Shown: positions 3,593 through 59,400 of the stretch, piece after piece | Layout: the number at the start of each line of letters is the position of its first letter | How positions within the stretch are numbered: the stretch's first letter is position 1 | Assembly (NCBI GenBank): GCA_038205745.1 | Contig: JBBRBM010000004.1 | Coordinates: forward strand, 1,529 to 65,528 | DNA from: Verrucomicrobiota bacterium | GTDB lineage: Bacteria; Verrucomicrobiota; Verrucomicrobiia; Limisphaerales; SIBH01 | Length of the DNA stretch: 64,000 nucleotides | Reading direction: 5' to 3' | Notes under the pieces: generated by a model | Told to the model about the DNA's origin: nothing | The model's input: only the letters and a program-made list of their open reading frames with translations | The model's database searches: none | Position numbers and translations under genes: made by a program

Positions 3593-3709
3593 GCGGCGGG
3601 CTTATTACAGATGGTGAAGCTGGAAATCACGGAAGAACAAACTCTGGATTCACTGACGCACTTTCCCGGCAGTGACACAGGCCGGATCCGCACGCTACTT
3701 TGGCGCGGG

Positions 3710-6652
3710 ATGAAAAGCTTCTTCGCTCTAGTGCTTTCCGTGGCGGGCGTGATCGCGGCGGAACAAAATCAGGAAAGCAGTTTCCTTTCGAACGCGCGCC
3801 AACTCACGTTCGAGGGGCGACGCAGCGGCGAGGGATATTTTTCACCCGACGGCAAGGCACTGATTTTCCAAAGCGAACGCGATCCCGAAAATCCTTTCTA
3901 CCAAATCTTCCTGCTCGACCTCGAAACCGGCGACACCCATCGCGTCTCGCCAGGCTTCGGCAAAACGACGTGCGCATTCTTCCGGCCCGGGAGCGATGAA
4001 GTTCTCTTCGCCTCAACGCATTTCGATCCAGGCGCCCGCGCCAAACAAAAAACTGAACTCGACTTTCGCGCCGCCGGAAAGGAGCGCCGCTATTCCTGGG
4101 ACTACGACGAACAGATGGACATCTTCGCCGCGCATCGGGACGGCTCGAACGTGCGGCAACTCACGGCGTCGCCGGGCTACGATGCCGAAGGCGCGTTCTC
4201 GCCAGACGGGAAGAAGATCGTCTTCTGTTCACTGCGCGACGCTTTCCCGACGAACAAACTTTCCGCCGCCGACTTGAAGCGGTTGGAAACTGATCCGTCT
4301 TACTTCGGCGAAATTTACATCATGGACGCAGACGGCTCGGACCAGCGCCGCCTTACGCAAGAGCCCGGCTACGATGGTGGGCCATTCTTCACGCCCGACG
4401 GCGAACGCATCGTGTGGCGGCACTTTGATACGAATGGCGTCATCGCCGATGTGTTCACGATGCGGCTTGATGGTTCGGACAGGCGGCGCATCACCGATTT
4501 TAAGTGCATGTCGTGGGCGCCGTATTTTCATCCGTCCGGGCGCTACCTGATTTTCACGGCAAACAAACTCGGCTTTGCCAACTTTGAGTTGTTCATCGTC
4601 GATCCCGCCGGTGCGCACGAACCCGTGCGCGTGACGTTCACGGACGGCTTCGATGGCTTGCCCGTCTTTTCGCCTGACGGAAAGAAGCTCGCGTGGACTT
4701 CAGCGCGAAGTTCCCACGCCAAATCGCAAATCTTTTTCGCCGATTGGAATCATGACGCTGCGCTTGCCGCACTTGAGACCGCGCCGACGCGAACTGCAAC
4801 AGTCCGCACCATCGCCAACAGTTCGGCGGCGGCTTCATTCTCACCACAGCACTTGAGCAATGACGTCGCGTACCTCGCTTCCGAAAAACTCGAAGGCCGT
4901 TTCACCGGCAGCAAAGGCGCGGAGCTTGCCGCGGAGTTTTTGGCGCAACGACTTCGCGCCGCTGGTCTTCAGCCGCTCGGCGACAGCAACACGTTCTTTC
5001 AACGGTTCGAATTCAACTCCGGCGTCCGTGTGATCACGAATCAGAACCATCTTTTCGTCCATGCCGATCAGCGCGCGTTCCCATTCTCCGTTGAAAAAGA
5101 TTTCCGTCCGCTGGCGTTCTCGGACAACGGCTTTGCGGAAGGAAATGTCGTGTTCGCTGGTTACGGCTTGTCCGTGCCCGGCAAGCTCGGCGAAGGCTAC
5201 GACTCTTACGCCGGGCTGAATGTTTCGAACAAAGTGGTGCTCGCGCTACGCTACGTGCCGGAAGAGATCGAGCCGAAGCGGCGCCAGGAACTGAATCGCT
5301 ACGCGGGCTTGCGCTACAAGGCCATGATCGCGCGCGAGCACGGTGCGAAGGCGATCCTCTTCGTCACCGGCCCGAACTCACCCAACGCCGGCGCGCTCAC
5401 CTCTATCGAATACGACGGCAGCATGGCCGGCTCTGGCATCATCGCGGCGTCGGTGACGAGCAACGTCGTGGCGCAGTTGTTTGCCGGAACGGGTCGCGAG
5501 TTGAAGGCGATTCAGTCCGCGCTCGATACTGAGAACCCGCACGCGGAAGGCGGCTTTGCGCTGACGAATGTCCGCGTGAGCATCACGACGTTGCTGGAGC
5601 GATTGAAGAAAGCGGATCGCAATGTGCTGGCTTATCTGCCGCCTCAACGTGCCCCCGGCATCTTGCCGGGATCATCGCACCCACCCGGCGAGACGCCGGG
5701 GGCACGTTCGGGCGCGGAAGTCGTTCTTGTCGGCGCGCACTACGATCACCTTGGCTTTGGCGAAAGCGGCGCGATGCTGCGCGCGGGCGAGGAGAAGAAG
5801 ATTCACCCCGGCGCGGACGACAACGCCTCGGGCACCGCCACTGTGCTCGCGCTCGCTGAACAACTTGCCGCCGAGCGTGCGAAGAACTCAGGCGCTTTCA
5901 CGCGCGGCATTCTCTTCGCGTTCTGGTCTGGCGAAGAAGTCGGCGTGATCGGCTCGTCGCAATTCGCCGAACATCCGCCAGTGCCAATTTCGAACATCAT
6001 TGCGTGCGTGAACTTCGACATGGTCGGGCGATTGCGCGACAACAAGCTGATCCTGCAAGGCATCGGATCATCGCCGGCATGGAGACGGCTGATCGAGAAG
6101 CGCAATGTCGCGGCGGGCTTCGATATGGTGCTGCAAGAGGATCCGTATCTGCCGACTGACGTGACGCCGTTTTATCCGCGCGGCATTGCCGTCGTGAATT
6201 TCTTCACCGGCAGCCACGACGATTATCATCGGCCCACTGACACTTCGGAAAAGGTGGACTACATCGGCATGGAACGCATCGCGAAGTTCGCACGCGGATT
6301 GCTGCTTGATCTGGTCTCCACGAATGCCCGGCCTGAGTACGCGAAAGTGACCTCTGCGAAAGGCGATGCGGGCGGACGTGAAAACCTGCGCGCGTTCCTT
6401 GGCACGATTCCCGATTACGCCGCCGAAGTGCAGGGCGTGAAACTTTCAGGCGTCCGTGCCGGCAGCCCGGCCGAAAAAGCGGGATTAAAACTGGGTGACG
6501 TGATCATCGAATTCGCCGGCCAGAAGATCGCGAACATCTACGACTACACCTACGCGCTCGACGCCGCGAAGATCGGCAAGCCGGTGCAGGTCGTGGTCAC
6601 GCGTGAGGGACAGCGCGTCGCGGTGAGTGTGACGCCTGAAGCGCGGAAATAA
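3710..6652 (+). CDS. secreted multidomain peptidase: TolB-like beta-propeller + M28 aminopeptidase + C-terminal PDZ
   Basis: Start moved to MKSFFALVLSVAGVIAAEQ (signal peptide). Repeated SPDGK/TPDGE propeller blades. M28 motifs GAHYDHLG, DDNASGTA, FWSGEEVGVIGS, NFDMVG, HDDYHRPTD. PDZ-like segment GSPAEKAGLKLGDVIIEF. Confidence 0.85.
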   Translation: MKSFFALVLSVAGVIAAEQNQESSFLSNARQLTFEGRRSGEGYFSPDGKALIFQSERDPENPFYQIFLLDLETGDTHRVSPGFGKTTCAFFRPGSDEVLFASTHFDPGARAKQKTELDFRAAGKERRYSWDYDEQMDIFAAHRDGSNVRQLTASPGYDAEGAFSPDGKKIVFCSLRDAFPTNKLSAADLKRLETDPSYFGEIYIMDADGSDQRRLTQEPGYDGGPFFTPDGERIVWRHFDTNGVIADVFTMRLDGSDRRRITDFKCMSWAPYFHPSGRYLIFTANKLGFANFELFIVDPAGAHEPVRVTFTDGFDGLPVFSPDGKKLAWTSARSSHAKSQIFFADWNHDAALAALETAPTRTATVRTIANSSAAASFSPQHLSNDVAYLASEKLEGRFTGSKGAELAAEFLAQRLRAAGLQPLGDSNTFFQRFEFNSGVRVITNQNHLFVHADQRAFPFSVEKDFRPLAFSDNGFAEGNVVFAGYGLSVPGKLGEGYDSYAGLNVSNKVVLALRYVPEEIEPKRRQELNRYAGLRYKAMIAREHGAKAILFVTGPNSPNAGALTSIEYDGSMAGSGIIAASVTSNVVAQLFAGTGRELKAIQSALDTENPHAEGGFALTNVRVSITTLLERLKKADRNVLAYLPPQRAPGILPGSSHPPGETPGARSGAEVVLVGAHYDHLGFGESGAMLRAGEEKKIHPGADDNASGTATVLALAEQLAAERAKNSGAFTRGILFAFWSGEEVGVIGSSQFAEHPPVPISNIIACVNFDMVGRLRDNKLILQGIGSSPAWRRLIEKRNVAAGFDMVLQEDPYLPTDVTPFYPRGIAVVNFFTGSHDDYHRPTDTSEKVDYIGMERIAKFARGLLLDLVSTNARPEYAKVTSAKGDAGGRENLRAFLGTIPDYAAEVQGVKLSGVRAGSPAEKAGLKLGDVIIEFAGQKIANIYDYTYALDAAKIGKPVQVVVTREGQRVAVSVTPEARK
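5649..5705. repeat. palindromic repeat family R-B copy 1 (arms GTGCCCCCGGCATCTTGCCGGG / CCCGGCGAGACGCCGGGGGCAC), inside the M28 peptidase CDS
   Basis: 57 nt, exactly 19 codons, encoding APGILPGSSHPPGETPGAR between ..NVLAYLPPQR and SGAEVVLVGAHYDHLG. The same arms recur at 28658, 55203 and 56328. Confidence 0.8.
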
Positions 6653-6704: not shown

Positions 6705-7646
6705 TCAGGGCGAGGTGATCCCGTTGAATGATCCGGTCACGGTGATGACTGCCGAGGCATCGTCCTCATCTTCCGCTGTGAAGGTGAAAGTCCCGAACAT
6801 TGATTTGGTCGCTGGATTGTAAGTGACCTGTGCGGTGCCATCGGGTCGGCTTGCCTTAACAAACGAGCGGCCACCGGGCCCTAATTGTGCAATCACGAAA
6901 TCGTAGAACGTGACCGGCACAGTGCTGGTTCCCGGGGGAACGCCGCCCAAGGTAAACGCGACCTGAATGAAGCCGTGGGTGGACGGGTTCGCCGCGCCAT
7001 TCACGATGAAAACGTTGTTTGGATATGCGAGAATAACGGCACCGAATGTCTTGAAAGATTTGCTAACAGCCCCCGCAGTCTTTCCGGAAATTTGCGCGGG
7101 TGGCGCTTGAACAGCGAGCGATTTGTTCACCAGTTTGTCCGCCACCGCCAGCTTCTTGGTCGCCGTGGAAATCGCTTTGGCGATGGCGGGATAATTATCA
7201 GTCTGGAAGTTGAGCAGTGTGTAAACGAGCGCAATGTTCCGCGCGGCGGCGGTGCGAGTGCCGGAAGGGAATGCGTTGTTCAAGCGGTTTGAACTGGCAT
7301 ACGCATTGTCCTCGGCGAGGAAAAAGAAATATTCCATCACGTTGTTCATGGCTCCGCTCAAATCATTCGAGACGGACGAGCGCGCAAGGGCGCCGATGAG
7401 AGTGCTCAGTGTTTTGGTGTCGGCAGAAATGTTCGTGACCACCGTTTTGTCGATGGTGGCGATGGCTTTTTTTAGCGCGGCGACGGCTTTCTTGTCAGGC
7501 GCAAGAATTCCATTCGTCGCGTTATAGAGCGCGTCTGAGACGGCTGCGCGGAAGGCTTCCATCTCTGTGGCTGGGTTGGTGATGGCGCGCAGGTTTGGAG
7601 TTGCGAACGTCAGTACGAGCAGTGCAAGACAGTAGATTTTTTTCAT
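6705..7646 (-). CDS. secreted hypothetical protein
   Basis: Start moved to MKKIYCLALLVLTFATPNLRA (signal peptide). The upstream part of ORF 6705..7880 runs through repeat R-A. No recognisable domain. Confidence 0.5.
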   Translation of the reverse strand: MKKIYCLALLVLTFATPNLRAITNPATEMEAFRAAVSDALYNATNGILAPDKKAVAALKKAIATIDKTVVTNISADTKTLSTLIGALARSSVSNDLSGAMNNVMEYFFFLAEDNAYASSNRLNNAFPSGTRTAAARNIALVYTLLNFQTDNYPAIAKAISTATKKLAVADKLVNKSLAVQAPPAQISGKTAGAVSKSFKTFGAVILAYPNNVFIVNGAANPSTHGFIQVAFTLGGVPPGTSTVPVTFYDFVIAQLGPGGRSFVKASRPDGTAQVTYNPATKSMFGTFTFTAEDEDDASAVITVTGSFNGITSP

Positions 7647-7796
7647 TACGGGGTTCTTATCGTCGTTTGTTCGCGCGGTGTTTAGCGGTTCGCAGACAAA
7701 ACACAACGGCAAACTCGCCAGATGTACAGTGCTGGGAGCGATCGTTCGATCGCATGCATCGGCGGAAGGGAGCGCGTGTCGCAGCTTCCACCCCAA

Positions 7797-7878
7797 GAAC
7801 CGTAGCAGCCGACGTAAGGAGGCTCTGACTTCTTTTCCCGAAAACAGAATGGCCTCCTTACGTCGGCTGCTACGGTTC
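7797..7878. repeat. palindromic repeat family R-A copy 1: perfect 27-bp inverted repeat
   Basis: GAACCGTAGCAGCCGACGTAAGGAGGC (7797-7823) and its exact reverse complement (7852-7878) flank a 28-nt loop. A diverged copy lies at 28130. Confidence 0.85.
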
Positions 7879-7906
7879 AAGCGCCCGGCACTTTCAATCG
7901 CATCCG

Positions 7907-16589: not shown

Positions 16590-16640
16590 TGATTCAAAAC
16601 CGCCGACGCCTCAAGGTTGCGCGCGTGGGCCGGCGGGGGA

Positions 16641-16733
16641 GTGAATCAGTAATCAGTAAACAGTAAATCAGTGAACAGCCCGCAGCCGCAGCTTCACTCA
16701 CTGTTTCACTGATTACTGACCTGCTGATTACTG
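16641..16733. repeat. palindromic repeat family R-E copy 1 (CAGTAATCAGTGAAACAG-type)
   Basis: GTGAATCAGTAATCAGTAAACAGTAAATCAGTGAACAG ... CTTCACTCACTGTTTCACTGATTACTGACCTGCTGATTACTG. A related copy lies at 43028. Confidence 0.75.
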
Positions 16734-28058: not shown

Positions 28059-28129
28059 CGCCTCTGACTTCCCTCTTCCCTCAACGGGGAGAGAATTTCC
28101 CCAACCAAAACTTCGCGCCTTGAACCCCT

Positions 28130-28209
28130 GAACCGTAGCAGGCGAGGTAACGAGGCTCTGATCTCCCTCCGACGGAGAAGTTTGAGCCTCCTCACGTCGG
28201 CTGCTACCG
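28130..28209. repeat. palindromic repeat family R-A copy 2 (diverged)
   Basis: GAACCGTAGCAGGCGAGGTAACGAGGCTC ... GAGCCTCCTCACGTCGGCTGCTACCG. Lies between the kinase and regulator genes. Confidence 0.7.
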
Positions 28210-28254: not shown

Positions 28255-30432
28255 TCATTGCCTCTCCTTCGCGTCTCCGCTTCTCTGCGCCTCTGCGTTG
28301 ATCGGCAGTTCGATCGTGAAGCAGCTTCCTTTGCCGACTCCGCTCTGCACCCGCACGCGTCCGCCGTGCGCCTCGACGATGTGTTTCACGATGCTTAGAC
28401 CAATTCCCACGCCTGGAGTTTCGCGGCGCAGTTCAGAACCGAGTCGATAGAAGCGCTCGAAGATCTTCTGGTGCTCGGCAGCGGCGATACCGGGGCCGTG
28501 GTCGCTGACGGCGAGGAGCCATTGAGGATTGGGGATTGAAGATTGAGGATTTTGGATTTTCAAACTCACGACGACTTCTTCTCCGCTGGGCGAATGCTTG
28601 ATCGCATTGTCGATGAGGTTCACGAGCGCTTGTTGGATAGCGGCGCCGTCCATCAAAGTGCCCCCGGCATCTTGCCGGGTTTCAGCTTCATTGGTCATCC
28701 CGGCCCGGCAAGAGGCCGGGGGCACGTTCACGACCAGCCGCACGCCGCGTTCCGCGCTGTACGGTTCCATGAGCTTCACCGTCTGCTCAACGAGAGCGAC
28801 AACATCCGTCGGCTCGAACTCGTATTCCTTGCGCCCCTGCTCGATGCGCGCGAAGTCGAGGACGTTTTCTATCATCGATGACAGCCGACGGCATTCCTGT
28901 GTGATGAAGCGGAAGTATTCGCGCTGCTTGGCCGGGTCGGAAATTTTCCCGCGCTCCAATCCCTCGGCCATCAATCGCACCGAGGCAATCGGCGCGCGCA
29001 ACTCATGCGACACGCTGGAGACAAAGTTGGATTTCATCTCCGCGAGCCGGAGTTGTTTGTGAAACGCACGCCAGGCGAAGAAGAAACCAATGATAGAAGT
29101 GGAGGCGGCTACAACGATGAGTAGTCCAAAGGCAAATACACGCGCACGCTGACGAGTGAACAGGAGATCAGGCCGGGATAGATGCGCGCCAACCGTCACA
29201 TATACCCTGCTCCCCATCGCTTGATTCGCCGACGCCAGCGCGGACTCCGCGTCTTTCGGAACAACTCCATACCACGAGCGCGAACCGACTTGTCCGGTGT
29301 TGGCGTTCTTGATCAGAAATTGCTCATTGATTTCAAGCGCATCACCCGCCACGGCGACGGTGAACTCCATCCAGTCCGGGTGCCGGACTCTTTCCAATGT
29401 CTGACGGACGAGGCGGGTTGTTTCAGCACGGGTGCGAAAGAACATGCCTTGCTCGCCAGAACGAAAGGCGAACCACAAGTTGTTGGTCACGAAATGGTTT
29501 GTCACTGGACACCAGACCCTGAGCGCAGATGGCGTCATGACACTGTAGCCTGTCGTCCACCGTACAAACTGCCCCCGCGCAATCTGGTGCAAGCCACGCA
29601 GCATTTCCTCCCGCTCCCACACTTCCCGCCAATGACGCTCAATCTTTGGGGCGCGATTCGCCGTCACCGAGTTGGAAGGTGCGGCAAGTCCGCACGCGCG
29701 CACCGCCAGCAGGATTGCGTCCGAACGCTCCGTTGGATTCGTGACACAACTTGAAGCCACGAACTCCAGAGGAGGCGGTTTGAACTCAAGCAGTTTGAGC
29801 AAAGCCAGTGTTCTCAAATCCCCACCACTTTCACCGAATACCGGTTCCAGTTGGGAGGCAAAGTTGCTGTAACTCAGCAAGGCGGCGTTGGTATTTCCCG
29901 CTTCAAGATATAGTCGTGCGCGGTCAAATTCCGCCGCCGCGCGAAAGCGAAGCGGCGGTTCCATCTCGATGAAATGCTGCCACTCGTTGAGGGCACTTTT
30001 ACTCGTGGATGGCGTTGCCTGAGATCGCCGGGCTCGCCATGACTCGATCTGGCCGGCTTGAAGCGCAGTTTCATCCAAAGGTTCAAGGGTCAGTGCTGTT
30101 TGGGAGGGTTTGGGCCACTTCAATCCGCCGTCCGTATCGAAAGCGATCAGTCGGCTCCAAATGGGATTGGGAGAAACCGTGGTGTTTTGCGGAAAATCCG
30201 GGAACACCGACAGGTCACCAATGGTTGGACTCTGCAAAGCTTCCCATACGAGGGGCGCAGCTTCATCCGCAAGTTCTGCGGCGCGAGCTTCGGCTTCACG
30301 CCGTGCGGACTTTTTATCCTGCTGGAGCGTGAACCCACCAAGCAACGCCAGCACCAGCATCGGCGCGAGGATGAGCACGCCCTGCCAGAAGAAGCTCGGC
30401 TTGCGGTTGGTTCGTTTCACGGGGTCGGCCAT
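28255..30432 (-). CDS. sensor histidine kinase with a large periplasmic domain
   Basis: Two TM helices flank a sensor region of about 400 aa. H-box SHELRAPIASV, N-box LVNLIDNAIKHS, G-boxes DHGPGI and GVGIGLSIV. The CDS contains repeat copies R-H and R-B. Confidence 0.85.
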   Translation of the reverse strand: MADPVKRTNRKPSFFWQGVLILAPMLVLALLGGFTLQQDKKSARREAEARAAELADEAAPLVWEALQSPTIGDLSVFPDFPQNTTVSPNPIWSRLIAFDTDGGLKWPKPSQTALTLEPLDETALQAGQIESWRARRSQATPSTSKSALNEWQHFIEMEPPLRFRAAAEFDRARLYLEAGNTNAALLSYSNFASQLEPVFGESGGDLRTLALLKLLEFKPPPLEFVASSCVTNPTERSDAILLAVRACGLAAPSNSVTANRAPKIERHWREVWEREEMLRGLHQIARGQFVRWTTGYSVMTPSALRVWCPVTNHFVTNNLWFAFRSGEQGMFFRTRAETTRLVRQTLERVRHPDWMEFTVAVAGDALEINEQFLIKNANTGQVGSRSWYGVVPKDAESALASANQAMGSRVYVTVGAHLSRPDLLFTRQRARVFAFGLLIVVAASTSIIGFFFAWRAFHKQLRLAEMKSNFVSSVSHELRAPIASVRLMAEGLERGKISDPAKQREYFRFITQECRRLSSMIENVLDFARIEQGRKEYEFEPTDVVALVEQTVKLMEPYSAERGVRLVVNVPPASCRAGMTNEAETRQDAGGTLMDGAAIQQALVNLIDNAIKHSPSGEEVVVSLKIQNPQSSIPNPQWLLAVSDHGPGIAAAEHQKIFERFYRLGSELRRETPGVGIGLSIVKHIVEAHGGRVRVQSGVGKGSCFTIELPINAEAQRSGDAKERQ
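28521..28560. repeat. tandem octamer repeat family R-H copy (GGATTGAG-type) inside the histidine kinase CDS
   Basis: ATTGAGGATTGGGGATTGAAGATTGAGGATTTTGGATTTT, read on the minus strand as ..KIQNPQSSIPNPQ.. just before the G1 box. Confidence 0.75.
28658..28725. repeat. palindromic repeat family R-B copy 2 inside the histidine kinase CDS
   Basis: GTGCCCCCGGCATCTTGCCGGG ... CCCGGCAAGAGGCCGGGGGCAC, read on the minus strand as ..PPASCRAGMTNEAETRQDAGGT.. between VRLVVNV and the N-box. Confidence 0.8.
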
Positions 30433-34414: not shown

Positions 34415-35508
34415 GGTTTCAGTGCGTTGACGCGATAGAAGGCGCGGGTTGCCGGTGTGTTCGTGTCTTGCAACAGCAACACTCCGCCACTTCCCGTGTT
34501 GGTCGCAGACGCCGCGCTCCAAGTGGCGAGATCACTTGTGCGTTCGAGAACGTAACTCCAGTTCGTGCGACTGATGAACTGCGCGCGCCATGTGCCATTC
34601 GAGCGTGTGCCACTGTAGTTTTGCACCGGGGGATCGGGCACCTTCACCACCAGATTGTCCACCGTTCCATGCGCGAGCACCGAGCCCCAAAACTGCGGGT
34701 TCCCGAACTGCGCCGCGTCGCAGTAACTCATGATCGCGAGCGAATCGCAGCGAAAATCCGCCGTCGCACTGAGCACGAGATCCTTGATCACGCCGAAGAC
34801 TGCGCCGTTCTTCGTGATGAGCGTCTTCAACGTGCGGTTCGTGGCGGTGAACATCATTTCGATGTGAAACAAATCATTCGTGGTCATCACGAGCGGGTGA
34901 TTGTCGCTGAAGTAGATCAGGTGATTCGTGGCGACCACCGTCGGCGCGAAGGTGGCGCCGAAGCCGGAGTCGGGGAAGTAATCGAACTCCACGAGATTGC
35001 GCGGCCCTGTCGCCGTTTGTCCCGCGCCGCGGAAGAAGTTCGTACCAATGGCATTCGAGAAGTTCATGAACCCGATCGCAATCTCGAACGTGTATGACTT
35101 GTTGCTGGTGGTGCCGATCGCGATGTCACGCAGCGTCAGATCGAAGGCGACGCCGAAATCATCGCTTCTGGAGATGATCGTGCGGAGCGGCAGCCAGAAG
35201 TAACTGTTCGTACGCGAAGAGTCCCAGGTCACTTCCATGTTCTGGTCCGTGGCGTTCCAGCGGAACAACGACGCGTCGCCGGACGAACGCCAGCCGCGCG
35301 CGGATGGATCGGTGGAAAAACTCTCACCGATCGTCACGGCGCGCAGCGCCGACATCAGCATCGCGAACACGAGCACGACGAATACGCCGCGGGCTTGGTG
35401 AAGGCGCGAACGACAGGCCGGAACGCGGACGGTCACGTCCGCCAGTTTTAGAGCGGATGTTCGCGCGGACGTGATCGTCCGCGCTCCGCGCTCCGGATGT
35501 TGGTTCAT
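34411..35508 (-). CDS. secreted hypothetical protein with a C-terminal ..W..FYRV module
   Basis: Start taken at MNQHPERG. Hydrophobic core [16 protein letters not shown]. No known domain. The 5' end contains repeat R-D, so the start is uncertain. Confidence 0.5.
35420..35487. repeat. palindromic repeat family R-D copy 1
   Basis: GGAACGCGGACGGTCACGTCCGC ... GCGGACGTGATCGTCCGCGCTCC. Confidence 0.8.
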
Positions 35509-36429: not shown

Positions 36430-36711
36430 ATTCGACTTCCGTTCCGCACTCGCGGAACGGACTGGCCTCATCCTTCTCTTTGACGGAGAAGTGGTTCGAC
36501 GAGCGAACCGGACGAGCGAAGCCAAACCGGTATCCTGACTGCGGGCTTTGCCTCACTCCCACCTTCCCGATTTCTCAGTGGCGTTCGCGCGAAAGATTTT
36601 CGCGGCGGAGTTCGTATCCCGACACAGTGGCGTAACCGTCCCGGATTCTCACCGGGTTCCCAGACATTTGACTGCGTGACATCCCGCACTCGCGGGACTC
36701 TTTCAAAGAGC
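36430..36711 (-). promoter_or_regulatory. cobalamin (B12) riboswitch
   Basis: The minus strand reads GGGAACCCGGUGAGAAUCCGGGACGGUUACGCCACUGU ... GCCACUGAGAAAUCGGGAAGG ... AAGCCCGCAGUCAGGAUACCGG. This matches the conserved core and B12 box of the cobalamin riboswitch family as I remember the consensus. No covariance model was run. Confidence 0.85.
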
Positions 36712-36746: not shown

Positions 36747-36772
36747 GCCATTTTTTGTAATTCTCTGCGCGC

Positions 36773-36834
36773 GGAGCGCGGACGGTCACGTCCGCGCGAA
36801 GAAGTCGTCTTGCGGACGTGACCGTCCGCGCTCC
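36773..36834. repeat. palindromic repeat family R-D copy 2 (perfect 23-bp arms)
   Basis: GGAGCGCGGACGGTCACGTCCGC, a 16-nt loop, then GCGGACGTGACCGTCCGCGCTCC. It ends 2 nt before the mutL stop codon. Confidence 0.85.
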
Positions 36835-36836
36835 GG

Positions 36837-38738
36837 TCACTGCGCGCGACCGAATTTCTTTTCCAGCTCGCGGAAATTCATCTCGATCAACGTCGGGCGT
36901 CCGTGTGGGCAAGTGTATGGCATGGCGCAGTGCCGAAGGTCCTGGAGCAGATTCTCCAACTCGGGCCCGTCGAGCGGATCGTTCGCCTTCACTGCGTGGC
37001 GGCAAACTGTTTTCGCAACGACATGTTCGCCGAGGCGCATCGAGTTCACCTGTTCGCCTGCAGCTTTTAACTCGTCGATCAAGCCCAGCACGAATCCGCG
37101 TGGCTCCGTGGACTTCACAAACGGCGGCAGCGCGTCGAGCAAAAATGTGCGCTCACCAAACTCGCTCAAACCGACACCGAGCCGCGTCAACGCGTTCAGA
37201 ATCCCACGGACGAATGTCGCATCACGTGGCGACAACTCGATCGTCTCGGGCAGCAACAATCGTTGCGACGCCACCTCGCCGCGTTCCGTGCGCTCCATCA
37301 TTTGCTCGAAGAGAATGCGCTCGTGAGCCGCGTGTTGGTCGAGCAGCACGAGACCGCGATCTGATTCGAGCACGACGTAGAGCTTTCCGATGACGCCGAC
37401 GATGCGCAGCGGGACGGAGAGCAACGGCGTGACGGGGGATTGAGGATTGAGGATTGAGGATTGGGGATTTGAGATTGCCGGAACTGGGCGTGCGGCTTGT
37501 GCGCGCTCTTCGGATTCGCGGCGGAATGCGAGCGGAAGCGGCGCGGTGATGGACTGCGGCGGTGCAGGCGTGATCGGCGGCAATTCCGGCAAACGGAGTT
37601 CCGGCGAGCTAATCGGTTGGGCAACTTCATTTTGCGCTTTTTGAACTACAGGCTGCGGCGGCGATGCGCTTGCTCGATGGAATCCGAGCAGCGCTTCCTT
37701 CACTGCTTCCGTCACAAAGCGCCGCACCGCGCGTTCGTCGCGGAACTTCACCTCGCGCTTGGCGGGATGGATGTTCACGTCCACCGCAGCGGGATCGATC
37801 TCGATGAACAAACAGCACACGGGGAATCGGCCCTTCATCAGCGCTGTGTGATAGCCTTCGAGCAATGCGTGATTGAGCGTGCGGTTCTCGACGGGACGAC
37901 GGTTCACGAAGAGATGCTGATCCTCGCGCGTCGAGCGCGCCACGCCGGGTGCGCCAATCAATCCCCACACGCGAACGTCAGACTTCGATCCGTCTGTGTG
38001 GCCAGTTTCGTCAGCCGCAAACTGTTCATGCAGTGGACCGCTCGCATCCACGGCAATCAACTGAGGCAACGTGCCGGCGAGCTGGCGCATGCGCTCACGC
38101 ACTGAATCAATTCCCGCGTTTGATTTCACCGCCGACAACTGCCACACCGTGCGCCCGTCCTTTACAAACGTGAAAGCCACGTCCGCGTGCGCCAGCGCGG
38201 CCAGTGTGAGGTAATGCTGGATGTGCGCCGACTCGGTTTCCTCGCTGCGCAAAAACTTTCGCCGCGCCGGCAAATTGAAAAACAACGAGCGCACTTCCAC
38301 GCTGGTTCCCGGCGCGCTGCCCGCCGCTTTCACTTCGATGATCTTGCCGCCGTTGATGATCACCTGTGCGCCTTCCGGTGAATCGCCGTCTTGTTCGCGC
38401 GTCGTGAGCGTGAAGCGACTGACGCTCGCGATGCTCGGCAACGCTTCGCCGCGAAAGCCCATCGTGGCGATGCTTTGAAGATCTTCCGCGCGCTGAATCT
38501 TGCTCGTGGCGTGGCGCTCAAGGGACAACAACGCGTCGTCGCGGCTCATGCCCATTCCGTCATCCGTCACGCGGATCAATGATCGCCCGCCTGCTTGGAT
38601 TTCGACGCTGACGCGCGTCGGCTTGGCATCGAGTGAGTTTTCGACGAGTTCCTTCACCACGCTGGCGGGGCGCTCGACGACTTCGCCAGCCGCGATCTGA
38701 TTCGCGACGTGTTCGGGGAGAAGACGGATGCGGTTCAT
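36837..38738 (-). CDS. mutL: DNA mismatch repair protein MutL
   Basis: N-terminal IRLLPEHVANQIAAGEVVERPASVVKELVENSLDA (GHKL ATPase). C-terminal dimerisation domain. Confidence 0.9.
   Translation of the reverse strand: MNRIRLLPEHVANQIAAGEVVERPASVVKELVENSLDAKPTRVSVEIQAGGRSLIRVTDDGMGMSRDDALLSLERHATSKIQRAEDLQSIATMGFRGEALPSIASVSRFTLTTREQDGDSPEGAQVIINGGKIIEVKAAGSAPGTSVEVRSLFFNLPARRKFLRSEETESAHIQHYLTLAALAHADVAFTFVKDGRTVWQLSAVKSNAGIDSVRERMRQLAGTLPQLIAVDASGPLHEQFAADETGHTDGSKSDVRVWGLIGAPGVARSTREDQHLFVNRRPVENRTLNHALLEGYHTALMKGRFPVCCLFIEIDPAAVDVNIHPAKREVKFRDERAVRRFVTEAVKEALLGFHRASASPPQPVVQKAQNEVAQPISSPELRLPELPPITPAPPQSITAPLPLAFRRESEERAQAARPVPAISNPQSSILNPQSPVTPLLSVPLRIVGVIGKLYVVLESDRGLVLLDQHAAHERILFEQMMERTERGEVASQRLLLPETIELSPRDATFVRGILNALTRLGVGLSEFGERTFLLDALPPFVKSTEPRGFVLGLIDELKAAGEQVNSMRLGEHVVAKTVCRHAVKANDPLDGPELENLLQDLRHCAMPYTCPHGRPTLIEMNFRELEKKFGRAQ
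37435..37476. repeat. tandem octamer repeat family R-H copy inside the mutL linker
   Basis: GGGGATTGAGGATTGAGGATTGAGGATTGGGGATTTGAGATT, read on the minus strand as ..ISNPQSSILNPQSP.. Confidence 0.75.
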
Positions 38739-43027: not shown

Positions 43028-43104
43028 AGTAATCAGTAATCAGTGAGTCAGTGTTCAGCGCTCGGCCTTTCACTGATTACTGTTTCACTGATTACTGATT
43101 ACTG
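43028..43104. repeat. palindromic repeat family R-E copy 2
   Basis: AGTAATCAGTAATCAGTGAGTCAGTGTTCAG ... CTTTCACTGATTACTGTTTCACTGATTACTGATTACTG. The right end contains the pyrF stop codon. Confidence 0.75.
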
Positions 43105-53376: not shown

Positions 53377-53951
53377 GCACGCCGCCGAATCCAGACTCGG
53401 TGCTTCAGCCCGCGCGCGTGTTGCCATTCGCGTATCCGCTGGATGAATTTTACGCGCTGGCGAATCGCGAACTGCCGACGATCGAGCAAGTGCGTGGCGA
53501 TGAATTACCAGAGCCATGGCGCCAGTTGCTCGTTCATAACAACGACATGACGCCGACGCTGGAGGGCTTTTACGAGGACGATCTCTCCCTGAAAGTCCTC
53601 TCGCGCCATCATCGCGGCGATTTTTACTTCCGCGAAGTCGCGCTGTTGACGGGCAGGCAAAACAAGGTGGTCGAATTCGGCGCCATCAAAATCAATCTCG
53701 GCTTGTTTCCGTGCTCCGCGCGCCCCCGCATTTTGGAGGAGCATCAGCCGCTCGGCGGCATTCTTCGCGAATACAAAATTCCGCACAGCAGCCGGCCGAA
53801 GGCATTTCTGCGCCTGCGCTCCGATGCGTTCATCAACGGCGCGCTGGAGCTTCGCGGCCAGCATGTGCTCTATGGCCGCCGCAACACATTATTCGATCCG
53901 AAGCAGCGGTCGCTCGCTGAGATTGTCGAAATTCTTCCCGATCACCAATGA
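53373..53951 (+). CDS. chorismate-lyase-fold (UbiC/DUF98-like) protein
   Basis: LLVHNNDMTPTLEGFY...REVALL...PLGGIL follows the UbiC/DUF98 pattern. ATGA overlaps on both sides. Confidence 0.5.
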   Translation: MSTPPNPDSVLQPARVLPFAYPLDEFYALANRELPTIEQVRGDELPEPWRQLLVHNNDMTPTLEGFYEDDLSLKVLSRHHRGDFYFREVALLTGRQNKVVEFGAIKINLGLFPCSARPRILEEHQPLGGILREYKIPHSSRPKAFLRLRSDAFINGALELRGQHVLYGRRNTLFDPKQRSLAEIVEILPDHQ

Positions 53952-55258
53952 AGACGAACCCGCAGAACCACGACGTTTTGATCATCGGTGCCGGCCCGGC
54001 TGGGAGCAGCGCCGCCGCGGTGCTCGCCCAGCATGGCCATCGCGTGCTGGTGCTCGAACGCGAGAAATTCCCGCGCTACCACATTGGTGAATCATTGCTC
54101 CCGTTCTGTTACGGGCCCCTGCAACGGCTCGGGCTGATCGACAAGCTGAAGGCGTCGCACTTCGTGAAGAAGTACAGCGTCCAGTTCGTGTCGCCGAACG
54201 GGAAGGCGTCGCAGCCGTTTTATTTCTTCAACCGCTACGATCGCGAGACCGTCGCGCAAACGTGGCAAATCCTGCGTTCCGAGTTTGATCAGTTGCTCAT
54301 GGAAAACGCGCGCGGTCGTGGCGCAGAGGTTCTGGAGCAAATCACCGTTTCGGAGTTGCTGCGGGAAGGCGAACGCGTCGTCGGTGTTCGCGCGCGGGAC
54401 AAGGATGGAGTCGAGCGCGAATTCCGCGCGCCAATGACTCTCGATTGCACCGGCAAGGAAGCTTTCTCCGCCACGCGCAACAACTGGCGTTCACGCGACC
54501 CGTTTCTGAACAAGGTCGCCGTATGGACTTACTACAAAGGGGCAAAGCGCGACGAAGGCATTGATGAAGGCACCACCACCGTCGCGATGGTGCCGGAGAA
54601 AGGCTGGTTCTGGTACATCCCGCAGCACGACGGCATGGTGAGCGTCGGCATTGTCGCGGAAGGCAAATATCTCGCGCGCGACGGCGTGAAGGACTTGAAG
54701 CAAATCTTCGATCGCGAAGTGAAGCAGAACCGGTGGGTGGAAGAACACCTCGCGTGCGGCCAACAGATCGGCGACTACCGCATCACGAGCGAGTATTCGT
54801 TCCACTCGCGCCACTGCGGCTGCGAAGGATTGTTGCTCGTGGGTGACGCGTTCTGTTTTCTCGATCCCGTCTTCAGCAGCGGTGTCATGCTGGCGCTCAA
54901 GAGCGGAGTGATGGCCGGAGATGCAGTCCATGCAGCGATCGTCGCCAAGGACTTCTCGTCCGAGCGTTTCACCGAATACGCGGCGCAGCTTCGCCAGGGA
55001 ATCGAGAACATGCGCAAGCTGGTGTATGCGTTCTACGACGAGAATTTTTCGTTCAAGAAGGTGATCGACAAATATCCAGAACTGGCCGGCGACATCACCG
55101 ATTGCCTGAGCGGCGATGTGAACAAAGATTTCTCACGGTTGTGGAACGCGATTCGCGAGTTTGCGCCCGTGCCGGATGATTTGCCTTACGGTGCGCCACA
55201 AAGTGGCCCCGGCATCCTGCCGGGTTCACGCGTGACAGAAAAAGCAGCAGCAGTGTGA
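53948..55258 (+). CDS. flavin-dependent halogenase-like FAD protein
   Basis: GAGPAGS, FPRYHIGESLLP, the WxWxIP signature (GWFWYIP), and FLDPVFSSGV. About the last 18 codons and the stop lie inside repeat R-B copy 3. Confidence 0.7.
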   Translation: MKTNPQNHDVLIIGAGPAGSSAAAVLAQHGHRVLVLEREKFPRYHIGESLLPFCYGPLQRLGLIDKLKASHFVKKYSVQFVSPNGKASQPFYFFNRYDRETVAQTWQILRSEFDQLLMENARGRGAEVLEQITVSELLREGERVVGVRARDKDGVEREFRAPMTLDCTGKEAFSATRNNWRSRDPFLNKVAVWTYYKGAKRDEGIDEGTTTVAMVPEKGWFWYIPQHDGMVSVGIVAEGKYLARDGVKDLKQIFDREVKQNRWVEEHLACGQQIGDYRITSEYSFHSRHCGCEGLLLVGDAFCFLDPVFSSGVMLALKSGVMAGDAVHAAIVAKDFSSERFTEYAAQLRQGIENMRKLVYAFYDENFSFKKVIDKYPELAGDITDCLSGDVNKDFSRLWNAIREFAPVPDDLPYGAPQSGPGILPGSRVTEKAAAV

Positions 55259-55304
55259 GGGATGGAATCTGGTGAGTTCCCACCCGGCAAGATGCCGGGG
55301 GCAC
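55203..55304. repeat. palindromic repeat family R-B copy 3
   Basis: GTGGCCCCGGCATCCTGCCGGG ... CCCGGCAAGATGCCGGGGGCAC. Confidence 0.75.
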
Positions 55305-55364: not shown

Positions 55365-56312
55365 ATGGAAGCATTGCCAAAGCCGGATGTGATTCTCACT
55401 CACGAGAGTGATCTCGATGGATTTCTGTCCGGACTTCTTTTGCGCCGCCTGGCCAAAAACCTGTTCGGCCAGGACGTGCGACTCGAGGCGTATCATTACC
55501 AGGCGTGGAAGATGCGCGACCTGCGCGAACGCTCGGCATGGGTGACGGACTTCAGCTTCGATGCACGCCTGGACAAGCCGGACTGGGTCATCATCGATCA
55601 TCATCCGACCGACGTCGTGCCGCAGCATGCGAGGTTGATTCACGATTTGCACAAGTCCGCCGGCACTCTCTGCTACGAATTGTGCGGCGCGCATGGGATT
55701 CAATCACCGGCGCTCGATCGACTCGTGCAGTTGAACAATATTTCCGACCTGTTCCTCGATGATGATCCCGAGTTCGTCGTGGCCGGCGATTACGCGAACC
55801 TGGTGAAGACTTACAACTTCTGGAACCTGCACGCCGTCCTCGGCGGCGACGTGGAGAAGCTTGTGGATCATCCGCTCCTGGAAGTCATGGCCGTGAAGCG
55901 GCGCGTTGAAGATCCCATTGGCTTCGAGTGGAGCCGGCGCAACGTTGTGGAACTCAGCTCGACGGTGGGCTTCGTCGAGACGGTTGTCGGCAACACGAAT
56001 CTCATCGTGCATCAATTGCTCGATTCGAAAGCCACGCCGTATTCGGTGCTCATCACGCTCTTCAAGAAGGCCAACAACCAGATCATCGTGAGCTTGCGCA
56101 GCCGCAATGGCGAAGCGCTGAAGCTCGCCACGCTGTTGCAAGGCGGCGGCCACGCGAACGCCAGCGGCGCCGTGTTGCCGCGCTCGGTGCGCAATCTCGA
56201 CGACGCGATCGATTACATGAAGCGGGTGCTCAATCCCGGCAAGGCGGCATCAACAGCAGCCTTCAACAGCCTCGAAGGCGCGTTCGCCGCGCTGGAATTG
56301 CCGAAGCAGTAG
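55365..56312 (+). CDS. DHH/DHHA1 family phosphoesterase (NrnA-like)
   Basis: HESDLDG, IIDHHP, GGGHANASGA. Confidence 0.8.
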   Translation: MEALPKPDVILTHESDLDGFLSGLLLRRLAKNLFGQDVRLEAYHYQAWKMRDLRERSAWVTDFSFDARLDKPDWVIIDHHPTDVVPQHARLIHDLHKSAGTLCYELCGAHGIQSPALDRLVQLNNISDLFLDDDPEFVVAGDYANLVKTYNFWNLHAVLGGDVEKLVDHPLLEVMAVKRRVEDPIGFEWSRRNVVELSSTVGFVETVVGNTNLIVHQLLDSKATPYSVLITLFKKANNQIIVSLRSRNGEALKLATLLQGGGHANASGAVLPRSVRNLDDAIDYMKRVLNPGKAASTAAFNSLEGAFAALELPKQ

Positions 56313-56327: not shown

Positions 56328-56416
56328 GTGCCCCCGGCGTCTCGCCGGGTGGGATCGTTGGCGGTCGAGCAGCACCACGGCTGCAACTCCGCAGCCCGGC
56401 AAGATGCCGGGGGCAC
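56328..56416. repeat. palindromic repeat family R-B copy 4 (intergenic, between convergent genes)
   Basis: GTGCCCCCGGCGTCTCGCCGGG ... CCCGGCAAGATGCCGGGGGCAC. Confidence 0.8.
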
Positions 56417-56418
56417 GC

Positions 56419-59400
56419 TTATGGCGTGATGCCGCGATAGAATCGGTTCGAGTAACTGCTGGTGTTCGGGTCGGTGATCAACACGGGCGAGACCGGACTC
56501 ACCACGTTCGTGAACGTCGCCCAATTCGTCAGGTTCGTGGATGCCTGAACTTGATAATTGAAATTGGGCGTCAGCGAAACGGTCATGCGGAACAGGCCGT
56601 TCGAATGATACATCGGCGCGATGAATTGGAGCGGGCCGCCCATTCCCGGCGGGCTGCCGGGCAAGCGATCCAGAAACGGCACCTGTTCCGGTGTGAACGC
56701 TTGATCGTAGAGGCGGATGCGCGCCACGGAGCCGGCGGAATTCTCCCCCGAATTGTCGATGAAGAAACGAATGCGGTTCGTGAGGCCGCTGATGACGAGG
56801 TACTGCGAATTATCCGGCGTCGCGAATTGCTGCACCCCGTTCACGTAGCCGCGCACGAAGTTCGTTTCGTCTCGCGTGAGCACCACTTGCACGTAGTTGC
56901 TCGCGGCGATGGATGGACTGGAAGCATTCGCCACGGGATAGAAATAGGTGCGTCCATCCAGAACGTATAAACCTCCTTCGCTCGCGGGATTCTTTGTGTC
57001 CACGACGCGGCGATAGCTGTTTGTCGCATCGAAACGGAACAACAGCACCATCGACCAGACATTGCTCGGGATGGTGTTCGTCGTCGGTTGAAGGAACACG
57101 CCGTTGCCGAGCGGGAAGCGATACACCGCGCGCGCGAAGCCATCGACGATTTCGCTCTGGAACGAATTGCCCGGAGCAACATTCTGCAAATCCGGCGGCG
57201 TGCCGACGGAGCTGGCGAGCGTGGTCTGGAAACGATAGTCCGCGTTTGGCAACGCCGGGTTTACGCCGAAGATTGCGTTCACGGTCTTGTTCGTCGTCAT
57301 CGTGACGTTGAGCGGCGTGTTGGTGCGAGTCGCGTCGCCGCTCCAGCCAAGGAACACGTAGCCGACGTCAGGCGCCGCATTCAGCGCCACAACGGTGCCA
57401 AGCGTGTATCGAGGTGTGCCGAGTGGATTGCTTGTGACCGTGCCGTGGGAATACACGAGTGTGAGCCGCGCCTTGAACGAAACTTTGTTCGTCGGATTGG
57501 TCGCGTCAGCATTTTCCTCGGCGTTCGTGATCCCGTCGCCATCGGGATCGCCTGCGCCGTTTTGCGAATAGGTGTTGCCGAAGTAAGTGAGTTCCCACGC
57601 GTCGGCCAAGCCGTCTCCGTCATTGTCGTCGGTCGCGGCGTTGCGCCCATCCATACGGAAGCTGAACGGTTGAGCGATGGCAGACGTGTTCGTGACGAGG
57701 AGGAAATACATGTAGTTCGGCTGCCAAGGCCAGTAGTTGGGCGTGCGGAGGTAAATGTTGAACGACGTGTTCTGCTGGCCGATCCAGTAGTTGTGGTTCG
57801 CGGTCGTCGGTGTGGGCGAGCTCCCCTGTTCGAGATAGAGATTCACCGCGTTGGAATGAATCGCCTTGTGAATCCAGCGATACGCATCCTCCGGAACGTC
57901 CACGCGGAATTTCATGGCGGTGAATGGCGGGATGACATTGGTGGTGAAACCGCCGTAGAACGGAATCAAGTTCGTGTAATTGATCTGCGGAGGATTCGTG
58001 CTCGAACTGACGGTGAAGGTCGCATCGCTCACCGCGCGAAAGCCGATGTAGTGGGGCGTGCCGGGGCGCACGGGCGGGTTGGTAAACGTGTACGTGCCCT
58101 GCGGATCGAAACTGGGATACGGCCCGTGGTTCTTCTGGTCGTTGTTCCAGTCGTGCGCATCACGCCCACATTATTCGTGGGCACCACGACGGCGTAGTAA
58201 TGGAAATTCCCCTGCTCAAGATCGATGCCTTGATCCAGCGGCAGCGCGATGCCATTTGTGTCCACGCCTGTATCGCCGAAGAGCGGCCCGGTGGGCGGCA
58301 ATCCCGGCGTGTTGACGGACTGGCCGATCATCGGCATCTGCCAGGCCATCCCTTCCAGCTTCAATCCGCTGCTCACGAGCCGGAAGCTGGTGGTTCCCTT
58401 CGCCTTCACTTCCACGAACCAGGTTCCAGGCGTGAGATAGGTGGGAACAATTACCGCTTCGCCCTGCGCATAAGGTGACGTGCCGCCATTATAGTTGTCA
58501 TCCGGCAGGATGTCCTTGCGCACGCGCACCGAAGGTGTGCCCGTCGTCTGTGAGAGATCGAGTTTCCAGCCGATTACCGGAGCGCCTTCGAAATTCGTCG
58601 GAACGATCACCCTGTAATAAGCGCGCGCCTGGTCCGCGAGCGTGTTGCTGGCGACATTCGAGAAGCCATTCGTGTTGAACACGGCGTCGAAGTAATAAGC
58701 GCCAACGTTCGGGAGATAGTCCTTCTGCACCATCATCAACGCGTCGCCCACGCCAGTCGCGAGGCGCACTTTCCAGCTCGGCATGTTGCTCGGGACATTG
58801 ACGGAATAAAAAGCGATGTCGCGGGCGGGCAGGCCCGTGTTCGTCGCCAGACCGCCGGCGAAAGGAATGTTCACGATCGGAATCGAAAGGTTCGTCCCGA
58901 TGCCGCGGCTGGCGAGCGTGTAGCTCAGCGGGGCCGCGCCACTCCCAGCGATCACGCCAATGTAGTAAAGGCCCGGCTCCAGCGGATTACCCATGCCCAG
59001 TTGCATGACATGGCCGTATTCGTTCGCGCCGTTCGTCCCGTTGAATCCAGTCCAGTCGTAGGTCGCACCAAACTGGTAGCCCGTGGGCCAATTTGGCGAA
59101 CTGTTGTAGTACCAGTAGCAACACGGATTATCGATGTGGGTGTAGAGCGCGTCCGGCAAGACCGCGCGGCGCACGCTCATGCGAGGATCACCACTGGTGA
59201 CGTTGGTCAGGCGCAAGTCCCAGCCGAAGGCGTTGCTCGGAACATTGATGATGAAATACTGCCAGTCGCTGGCGGCCTGGCCGGCGATGGGCACCGCTCC
59301 GCCATCAAACGCCACAGGAATGGTGCCGAGCGCGTGAACGCGCACCGTGTAGCTGGCGTTCGAGTAGCCGCTGACATACGCCGCTGCGCTCACGGTCAGG

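Follow-up and report, generated by a model that had tools for sequence, protein, structure and literature searches.

An in-frame palindromic repeat in an M28 peptidase gene as a probable member of a REPIN-type element family of Verrucomicrobiota

We analyzed a stretch of 64,000 nucleotides from a Verrucomicrobiota bacterium (assembly GCA_038205745.1, contig JBBRBM010000004.1, positions 1,529 to 65,528), in the following called the window, which carries a 57-nt palindrome at position 5649-5705 inside an open reading frame (ORF) for an M28 peptidase. The palindrome belongs to a repeat family, R-B, it is an insertion relative to the orthologous peptidases, it preserves the reading frame and it falls into a loop that is predicted to be disordered. 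In related genomes, copies of R-B flank a gene for a REP-associated tyrosine transposase (RAYT; REP, repetitive extragenic palindromic sequence). The palindrome is very probably a non-autonomous mobile element of the REPIN type (REP doublet forming a hairpin) in shortened form. An earlier note on this DNA, made from the letters alone, had described a 57-nt hairpin element lying in-frame within the M28 peptidase ORF, and sequence, ORF and Pfam domains confirmed this description.

The palindrome has the structure GTGCCCCCGGCATCTTGCCGGG-ATCATCGCACCCA-CCCGGCGAGACGCCGGGGGCAC with 22-nt arms, in which two positions are non-complementary, and the complementarity continues outside the arms as AAC/GTT. 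Each R-B arm alone also represents a small hairpin, CCCGGCA-TCT-TGCCGGG in this copy, and the G+C content of the element is about 75%. For the extended element of 63 nt, RNA folding predicted -51 kcal/mol compared to -24.2 +/- 2.9 kcal/mol for shuffled sequences (z = -9.2), and DNA folding predicted -30.5 kcal/mol (z = -8.4). A search of the window with the arms, allowing up to 3 mismatches, returned eight arms forming four paired elements, while 0.00 matches were expected from 100 dinucleotide-preserving shuffles. The same arms are thus present at three further loci, as the earlier note had also stated. A scan of the whole window against Rfam gave no match to the R-B element; a cobalamin riboswitch (36508-36686) was the sole match.

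Across the element, the peptidase ORF reads LAYLPPQ-RAPGILPGSSHPPGETPGAR-SGAEVVLVGAHYDHLG and the frame is intact. Homologues of the peptidase number in the thousands, and we compared the 120 best (64-83% identity) around the invariant GAHYDHLG motif, a comparison that the earlier note had proposed. About 110 of the 120 orthologues do not have the 19 residues and show a short turn with the consensus NVxAxLPPxxxxxxxEYVLVGAHYDHLG. One of them, P0004 (80% identical), is shorter by exactly 19 residues at the insert position. P0002 (83%) also has the insert, in a version that differs at 4 of the 19 residues (VPGILPGSGVQPGETPGAR). The insertion is therefore older than the split between the lineages of P0002 and the window, and has drifted since. 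In P0003 (82%), the loop is 6 residues above the usual length and could be the remnant of a decayed element. We concluded that the 19 residues are an insertion relative to the orthologues. If they were an ancestral variable loop, palindromic by chance or composition, neither an insertion nor a mobile element would be needed, and loop length does vary among the orthologues. This alternative is refuted by the zero arm matches in shuffles, by the same arms in dozens of unrelated genes and by the majority of orthologues without the segment, and its probability is practically nil.

In the solved structure of the M28 keratinase KP1 (8AC9), the turn consists only of RRGNPNN, as seen in a family-profile alignment. 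A search of the PDB with the single peptidase sequence had aligned only downstream of the insert, while the family profile covered the loop. An AlphaFold2 model of the peptidase based on 60 orthologues reached a mean pLDDT of 76.7. Residues 682-699 were predicted as coil with pLDDT values below 50, between the strands 662-676 and 704-710, whereas the neighboring 10-residue blocks had values of 83-91. Strand 704-710 terminates in His710 of AHYDH in the model. This residue is presumably a zinc ligand, by homology with M28 enzymes, and the insert would be located at the end of the strand opposite the metal site. The model thus places the insert in a loop, a point that the earlier note had proposed to check. 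For the peptidase, the insert would presumably be functionally neutral.

Table 1. Position and context of the R-B copies in the window and of the genes harboring copies 1 and 2.
Feature	Position	Strand	Length	Context
R-B copy 1	5649-5705	+	57 nt	arms 5649-5670 and 5684-5705; in-frame as (R)APGILPGSSHPPGETPGA(R), residues 680-699 of the M28 peptidase
R-B copy 2	28658-28725	-	68 nt	in-frame, minus strand, as VPPASCRAGMTNEAETRQDAGGT; loop of a histidine kinase between HisKA and the N-box of HATPase_c
R-B copy 3	55203-55304	+	102 nt	overlaps the 3' end of the FAD-dependent halogenase-like ORF 53948-55258
R-B copy 4	56328-56416		89 nt	intergenic; convergent ORFs 55365-56312 (+) and 56419-58071 (-) on either side
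Host gene of copy 1	3611-6652	+	1013 aa	Pfam: PD40 beta-propeller repeats, PA/Peptidase_M28 region (Peptidase_M28 from residue 695), PDZ
Host gene of copy 2	28255-30432	-	725 aa	sensor histidine kinase; HisKA 466-533, HATPase_c from 595

The four copies in the window differ in their context (Table 1). Copy 3 provides the final ~18 residues (GPGILPGSRVTEKAAAV) and the stop codon of the halogenase-like flavoprotein. The pattern GTGCCCCCGGCNTCNNGCCGGG was scanned in GTDB species representatives (at least 99 stretches) and in JGI metagenomes (at least 120 stretches). Most loci entered the collection because one arm matched exactly. No locus retrieved overlaps the window, and the best match to the window was one hit of 79%. 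We found at least 148 unique paired R-B copies, almost all of them in Verrucomicrobiota assemblies among the matches listed. Sources with multiple hits were JBBQYK01 (one fragmented metagenome-assembled genome, MAG, with at least 31 stretches), three glacier MAGs carrying the label Akkermansia, several MAGs labelled as Pedosphaera sp., a few soil bins labelled otherwise, and the metagenomes Ga0163150 (dozens of stretches) and Ga0105047. Streptomyces, Kocuria and similar genomes gave single matches, which appear fortuitous. An in-frame R-B copy was also seen in a Mu-type phage portal gene (L095:1352-1428; Portal_Mu, E = 5.5e-54). The contig had been assigned to a Candidatus Acidoferrum bin, and the copy could represent a route of horizontal spread or a binning error.

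The R-B unit comprises 22 nt, GTGCC followed by CCCGGCR-TCY-YGCCGGG with a 7-bp hairpin, and two inverted units are arranged around a variable spacer. Paired copies have sizes of 50-113 nt with spacers of about 5-69 nt. The core length (GTG to CAC) peaks at 91, 94 and 109 nt, shorter forms range from 49 to 86 nt, and copy 1 of the window is an internally shortened form. The arms are about 95% conserved within the family, the spacer is diverged with still recognizable homology, and the predicted long hairpins reach z-scores of -5.5 to -9.2. Single units are also present, e.g., in L038. Locus L083 harbors two 109-nt copies with 3 differences and unrelated flanks, which points to recent transposition.

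With its terminal inverted repeats (22-25 nt) and its size range (50-113 nt), R-B would also suit a classical miniature inverted-repeat transposable element (MITE), a deletion derivative of an insertion sequence (IS) that uses a DDE transposase and creates a target-site duplication. A core of 3n+1 nt, as found for R-B (see below), would be in-frame given a target duplication of 2 bp. However, the R-B flanks show no direct repeats that would represent a target-site duplication, and the palindrome instead extends outward (AAC...GTT). About 1.5 Mb of flanking DNA contained no long element with R-B ends, no parent IS and no adjacent DDE transposase. Each arm is itself a hairpin, like a REP, and the sole transposase found flanked by R-B is a Y1/HUH RAYT. 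We considered a MITE to be very unlikely.

The coding status of the copies was assigned by ORF continuity and a codon-usage log-odds model, which was trained on 118 long ORFs of the loci and found the right frame in 78% of 150-nt test windows. By this assignment, 56 of the 140 evaluable copies (40%) lie in-frame in long ORFs with coding signal on both flanks, 14 overlap the 3' end of an ORF, and the other 70 fall in neither class. The codon grid was kept in 47 of 53 copies with both 300-nt flanks open and coding on the same strand (expected 1/3; binomial p = 8e-17), and the element was free of stop codons in 46 of these 47. The general in-frame process envisaged from the single peptidase copy is therefore borne out. 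Pfam confirmed 18 of 19 hosts tested. These comprise MutS (insert between domains I and II), DNA polymerase III alpha (DnaE), class II ribonucleotide reductase, IleRS, the SMC hinge, UvrA, a MiaB-like radical-SAM enzyme, an ABC transporter, squalene-hopene cyclase, an aminotransferase, asparagine synthase, a PSCyt2/PSD1 protein and a Mu-type portal protein. A thioredoxin-domain protein was recognized as an additional host by inspection.

A bias of intragenic copies toward lengths divisible by three had been proposed as a test in the earlier note. No such bias was observed: the core length modulo 3 equals 1 in 32 of 49 in-frame copies and also in 38 of 79 other copies, and the test was badly posed. 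The main length classes of 91, 94 and 109 nt are all 3n+1 and are spaced by multiples of three. Since the codon grid is preserved with a core of 3n+1, the net inserted unit must be core+2 (93, 96, 111) or core-1. In-frame copies of full length extend the ORF by 31, 32 or 37 codons and borrow a single base from either flank (xGT GCC ... GGC ACx).

The reading phase of the in-frame copies was strongly biased. The left arm is read as APG(V/I)(P/L)PG in 40 of 56 copies, as VPPASRR in 13, and never in the Cys/Arg-rich frame (CPRRPAG, 0/56). All 11 in-frame copies of 91/94 nt from the first scan read one strand of the asymmetric spacer, with a consensus of approximately (R/S)APGVPPGS..(S/T-rich)..N(A/T)PTRQDAGGT. 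The APG phase is open in 69% of long non-coding copies compared to 50% in each other phase and 55% for shuffled spacers; intrinsic openness as the cause of the bias was rejected, as it explains little. The bias would fit selection on a translated, benign and disordered peptide.

A stable GC-rich hairpin within a coding region resembles bypass elements, and the R-B hairpin is very stable and GC-rich. The insert could thus be skipped by translational bypassing (as in T4 gene 60 or the mitochondrial byp type) or be removed by RNA or protein splicing. Skipped elements, however, need neither to keep the frame nor to avoid stop codons, whereas 47 of the 53 R-B copies with coding flanks keep the grid and 46 of these 47 lack stops. 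A strong preference for one phase is sensible only if the peptide is made and argues against models with a skipped insert. Splice motifs of inteins were not present at the insert junctions. An untranslated insert is extremely improbable.

Several loops were occupied repeatedly. In the peptidase orthologue P0022 (65% identical), a 69-nt R-B element is present at the M28 turn in the same orientation and phase as in the window, with the DNA sequence GTGCCACCGGCATCCTGCCGGG-25 nt-CCCGGCAGGATGCCGGGGGCAC in L100. The M28 turn of P0009, P0010, P0013, P0037 and P0096 contains an unrelated palindromic family (VGRGVPAAPR...RRAEDSAPYQ), and that of P0085 yet another repeat family (GRVVPNAPRVGTRPSAGGPVTALP). 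Copy 2 of the window differs from copy 1 in reading strand and phase. The orthologues P0121, P0122/P0123 and P0162 of its host kinase (75-80% identical) have an R-B element at the same site, while more than 100 others do not. The C-terminal loop of the helicase PriA harbors R-B in one metagenomic locus (L129) and a different repeat in another (L176). We concluded that the M28 turn, the kinase loop and the C-terminal loop of PriA are permissive loops.

Some further observations were made on these and similar hosts. In P0121 (L101:~1900-2060), a full 109-nt R-B copy with the other arm variant GGCGTCCCGCC is found where the window has the 68-nt copy. A duplicate of the left end, 12 nt long (GTGCCCCCCAGC), precedes this copy, which suggests a replacement or a second insertion at one position. 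Across the orthologues, the kinase loop before the N-box contains at least four repeat families (R-B, TSNIEHRTSNIE-type, LAAPKSDEGG-type and SLLTSAPT-type). Runs of GGATTGA-like heptamers (ATTGAGGATTGGGGATTGAAGATT) are present in the window at 28507-28558 and 37425-37490; the former is read as IQNPQSSIPNPQ in the histidine kinase ORF and represents a second in-frame repeat of that gene. A UvrA gene (L020:59-2977) carries, besides its R-B insert, a second apparently repeat-derived insert (SAGVSPALGVRTRQAGVDAAAP) further upstream, comparable to the doubly hit uvrA genes of Opitutus terrae.

We compared 26 pairs of orthologous insertions to follow the element after its integration. Mean identity was 92% for the arms, 77% for 240-nt coding flanks and 48% for the spacer. 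The arms were more alike than the flanks in all 26 pairs, with the arm identity inflated by the ascertainment of loci through exact arm matches. For pairs in which the partner was found by protein homology, identity was 86-91% for the arms versus 63-83% for the flanks. Internal deletions distinguish some orthologous copies (111 vs 75 nt in UvrA, 109 vs 66 nt, 91 vs 55 or 58 nt), with arms and frame kept.

These data would also be expected if the arms were kept for a host function at the DNA or RNA level, even within genes. The arms could bind a protein, serve as a site for gyrase or a nucleoid protein, make the ribosome pause at a domain boundary or stabilize the mRNA, and the high stability of the stem (-51 kcal/mol) favors such a role, as do the conserved arms and their retention in internally deleted copies. 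On the other hand, besides the inflation by exact arm matching, orthologues with decayed arms would escape recognition (P0003 and P0124 are possible examples). Clear decay was seen in the right arm of L102 (17/22) and the left arm of L103 (18/22). Gene conversion among hundreds of copies, or correction of the arms within the hairpin, would yield the same pattern. The retention of the arms could reflect constraint or gene conversion. A host function is compatible with a REPIN-type mobile element, and we regarded it as possible but rather doubtful.

Transposase genes were searched by tblastn with the RAYT and TIRYT sequences of Additional file 5 of PMC3733652 (E. coli, O. terrae, R. baltica, Koribacter, Geobacter, Pseudomonas). 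In the window and the loci from the genome scan, only weak hits and no credible ones were obtained. On inspection, the weak hits turned out to be GlcD, thymidylate kinase and UvrA and were rejected. Among about 220 pattern-derived loci, credible hits were found only in L129 and L176, which are both metagenomic and the two densest in R-B arms. The Y1_Tnp domain was recognized with 36.9 bits in L129 and 30.1 bits in L176 (Pfam cut-off 23), with a full R-B element on each side. Both contain the HUH motif MPNHVHVLV and the Tyr motif FRAYIRENP. Their homologues mostly have 190-300 aa, and many are annotated as 'REP element-mobilizing transposase RayT'.

In both loci, the block of R-B, RAYT and R-B lies in-frame inside priA (L129:10124-13555, minus strand; L176:2-3073, plus strand). 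When E. coli PriA (8FAK) is aligned to the L129 ORF, it covers residues 112-317 and 594-1040 of the ORF, and the intervening 276 residues fall between residues 212 and 219 of PriA, immediately ahead of Walker A (LLHGVTGSGKTE). The two ORFs are unbroken and 75% identical, with 70% for the RAYT, 72% for the N-terminal PriA domains and 90% for the helicase core. The same placement of a RAYT in priA was seen in L224:3005-6483, where the ORF is split, possibly due to long-read errors, and the flanks are formed by a sister repeat family with compensating stem changes. The fragment P0286, in which the 3'BD of PriA is joined to a RAYT, shows the same placement. The arrangement is thus found in four assemblies, with an unbroken frame in the two in which the whole gene is readable (L129 and L176). 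Chimeric assembly was rejected as unlikely because the four assemblies are independent and diverged. A close homologue of the RAYT, P0242, is stand-alone (L225:4001-4771); its neighbors are glcD-like and glcF-like genes, and the stop and start codons overlap. In another MAG, an R-B element (L076:3898-3965) is located at the position matching P0242, right after the stop codon of the glcD-like gene.

The binding targets of PriA are stalled forks and D-loops, and single-stranded hairpins at forks are the substrate of HUH/Y1 transposases. We tentatively suggest, as a possibility of limited likelihood, that R-B is a REPIN system of long standing, with a transposase that is produced as an internal domain of PriA, the replication-restart helicase. 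If true, fusion to PriA would bring the enzyme to its substrate, and this could also explain the conserved arms of the intragenic copies. It is equally open whether the transposase selfishly shelters in an essential gene, as inteins do. A literature search found no paper linking RAYTs with PriA.

For copy 1, we propose the following history of a REPIN-type element. A copy would have inserted into the DNA for the turn between two beta-strands of the M28 domain, before the strand that ends in the putative zinc-binding His of AHYDH. The net insertion would have kept the codon grid without introducing a stop codon and thereby left the gene intact. Translation of the element would then give a disordered surface loop rich in Gly, Pro and Ser and tolerated by the enzyme. 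Subsequently, the interior would have drifted and been partly deleted, while the arms were retained. The family as a whole would be mobilized in trans by a single-copy RAYT of the HUH/Y1 type acting on hairpins in single-stranded DNA. The RAYT of the related genomes is presumably the mover of the R-B elements, and a RAYT probably exists in the genome of the window as well.

Several points speak against this explanation. Neither a RAYT nor priA was found within the 64-kb window, and the link to the transposase comes from related genomes only. The REP head is GTGC and not the canonical GTAG. The ends of the inserted unit, including any 2-nt duplication, could be fixed only with a near-identical empty site. 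The assignment of most copies as coding depends on ORF continuity and on a codon model that picks the right frame in 78% of cases, with 20 hosts confirmed by Pfam, and the translation of the insert is a prediction from the sequence.

In-frame palindromic repeats were first described as Rickettsia palindromic elements (RPEs) (Ogata et al. 2000, Science 290:347, via PMC10969869 and PMC3733652). RPE-1 to RPE-10 resemble R-B in being palindromic, interspersed and often in-frame in unrelated functional genes, with a similar intragenic share, and in adding hydrophilic segments thought to be on protein surfaces. Di Nocera et al. placed RPE-4 and RPE-6 under the CGTC-type REPs (PMC3733652). The host of R-B differs from Rickettsia in being a free-living soil verrucomicrobium with 59% GC, and no sequence homology is to be expected with the RPEs, which are AT-rich and belong to an intracellular alphaproteobacterium. 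R-B functions in the manner of an RPE, yet it should not be classified among them. The parallel to Rickettsia drawn in the earlier note is therefore appropriate for the in-frame process, while the closest class of elements is REP/REPIN with RAYT, for which in-frame copies are known from O. terrae (PMC3733652).

REPs were sorted into the GTAG and CGTC superfamilies with variants including GTGG (Di Nocera et al. 2013, BMC Genomics 14:522; PMC3733652). For O. terrae, about 70 in-frame REP singles and dimers are listed in Additional file 3 of that study, and the hosts include both uvrA genes, dnaE2, ligase and helicases. Over half of the catalogued intragenic insertions occur as dimers or as repeats in groups, coding for 20-30 residues (PMC3733652). 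The O. terrae REPs resemble R-B in several respects. They stem from the same phylum and are short GC-rich hairpins with a 4-nt head, often in inverted pairs with spacers of 20-100 bp. Dozens of them are in-frame, encoding 15-50 residues in housekeeping proteins, and UvrA and DnaE are also hit by R-B. Back-translation of the O. terrae GTAG-19 peptides (GTGVPPV / HGRDARAT) suggests a unit GTGG-CACGGGCG-TCC-CGCCCGTG, which would share the core GGCGTCCCGCC with R-B. In contrast, stem sequence and head (GTGC/GTGCC) of R-B differ from the O. terrae REPs, the modal R-B form is a dimer of 91-109 nt with a homologous, fast-evolving spacer, and about 40% of the sampled copies are intragenic. The cognate RAYT of R-B lies inside priA, whereas the O. 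terrae RAYT (ote 2468) has a stand-alone length of about 180 aa.

The REPINs of Pseudomonas and Enterobacteria consist of two inverted REPs that together make a long hairpin, and a single-copy RAYT is flanked by its own REPINs (Bertels and Rainey 2011, PMC3116915; Bertels et al. 2017, PMC5581495). These REPINs show vertical inheritance and long persistence and are conserved at orthologous sites (PMC3116915, PMC5581495). Unlike R-B, they are by definition almost all extragenic and their RAYTs are stand-alone, and a helicase fusion is mentioned in neither PMC3116915 nor PMC5581495. REPs are imperfect palindromes of 20-40 bp with a conserved 4-nt head, GTAG or a variant of it. The R-B unit has 22 nt and a 7-bp hairpin, and its head is GTGC. 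R-B shares with REPINs the inverted pairs with a long hairpin, the many dispersed copies and, in related genomes only, the flanking of a RAYT. REPs are mainly extragenic, whereas R-B departs from this with 56 of 140 copies in-frame and 14 more at ORF 3' ends; O. terrae departs likewise. We concluded that R-B is a REPIN family by anatomy and transposase, and thus a new sequence family in another verrucomicrobial lineage but not a new kind of element. Beyond the literature consulted are the high intragenic share, the 3n+1 lengths, the phase bias, the arms outlasting the spacers, the loops hit repeatedly and the RAYT in priA.

The window contains further interspersed repeats. Another palindromic family (GAACCGTAGCAGCCGACGTAAGGAGGC) has a copy at 7797-7878 with perfect 27-nt arms 28 nt apart, which overlaps the 5' end of ORF 6705-7880, and a second copy at 28129-28207 just 3' of the end of the histidine kinase gene. 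Copies of a third family (CGGAGCGCGGACGGTCACGTCCGCGCG) at 35418-35491 and 36769-36836 flank the cobalamin riboswitch (minus strand; Rfam RF00174, 58 bits). Runs of AGTAATC/AGTGAAT-like units at 16640-16678 and 43028-43104 are inverted repeats and represent an additional repeat type.

Selfish DNA inside proteins is no oddity of Rickettsia but routine for REPIN-type elements in free-living, GC-rich Verrucomicrobiota, with about 40% of the sampled copies in-frame in genes, including essential genes of replication and repair. Gene callers and domain annotators should expect low-complexity inserts of 17-38 residues (APGVPPG...TRQDAGGT) at loops in this lineage, and the inserts should be masked in multiple alignments and phylogenies of the host proteins. 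Loops that are hit by unrelated repeat families mark permissive sites that might be exploited in protein engineering. The 3n+1 length classes, the phase bias and the arms that outlast the interior provide a testable case of an element adapted to life in coding sequence. How a REPIN-type system is kept and targeted may be illustrated by the RAYT nested in priA.

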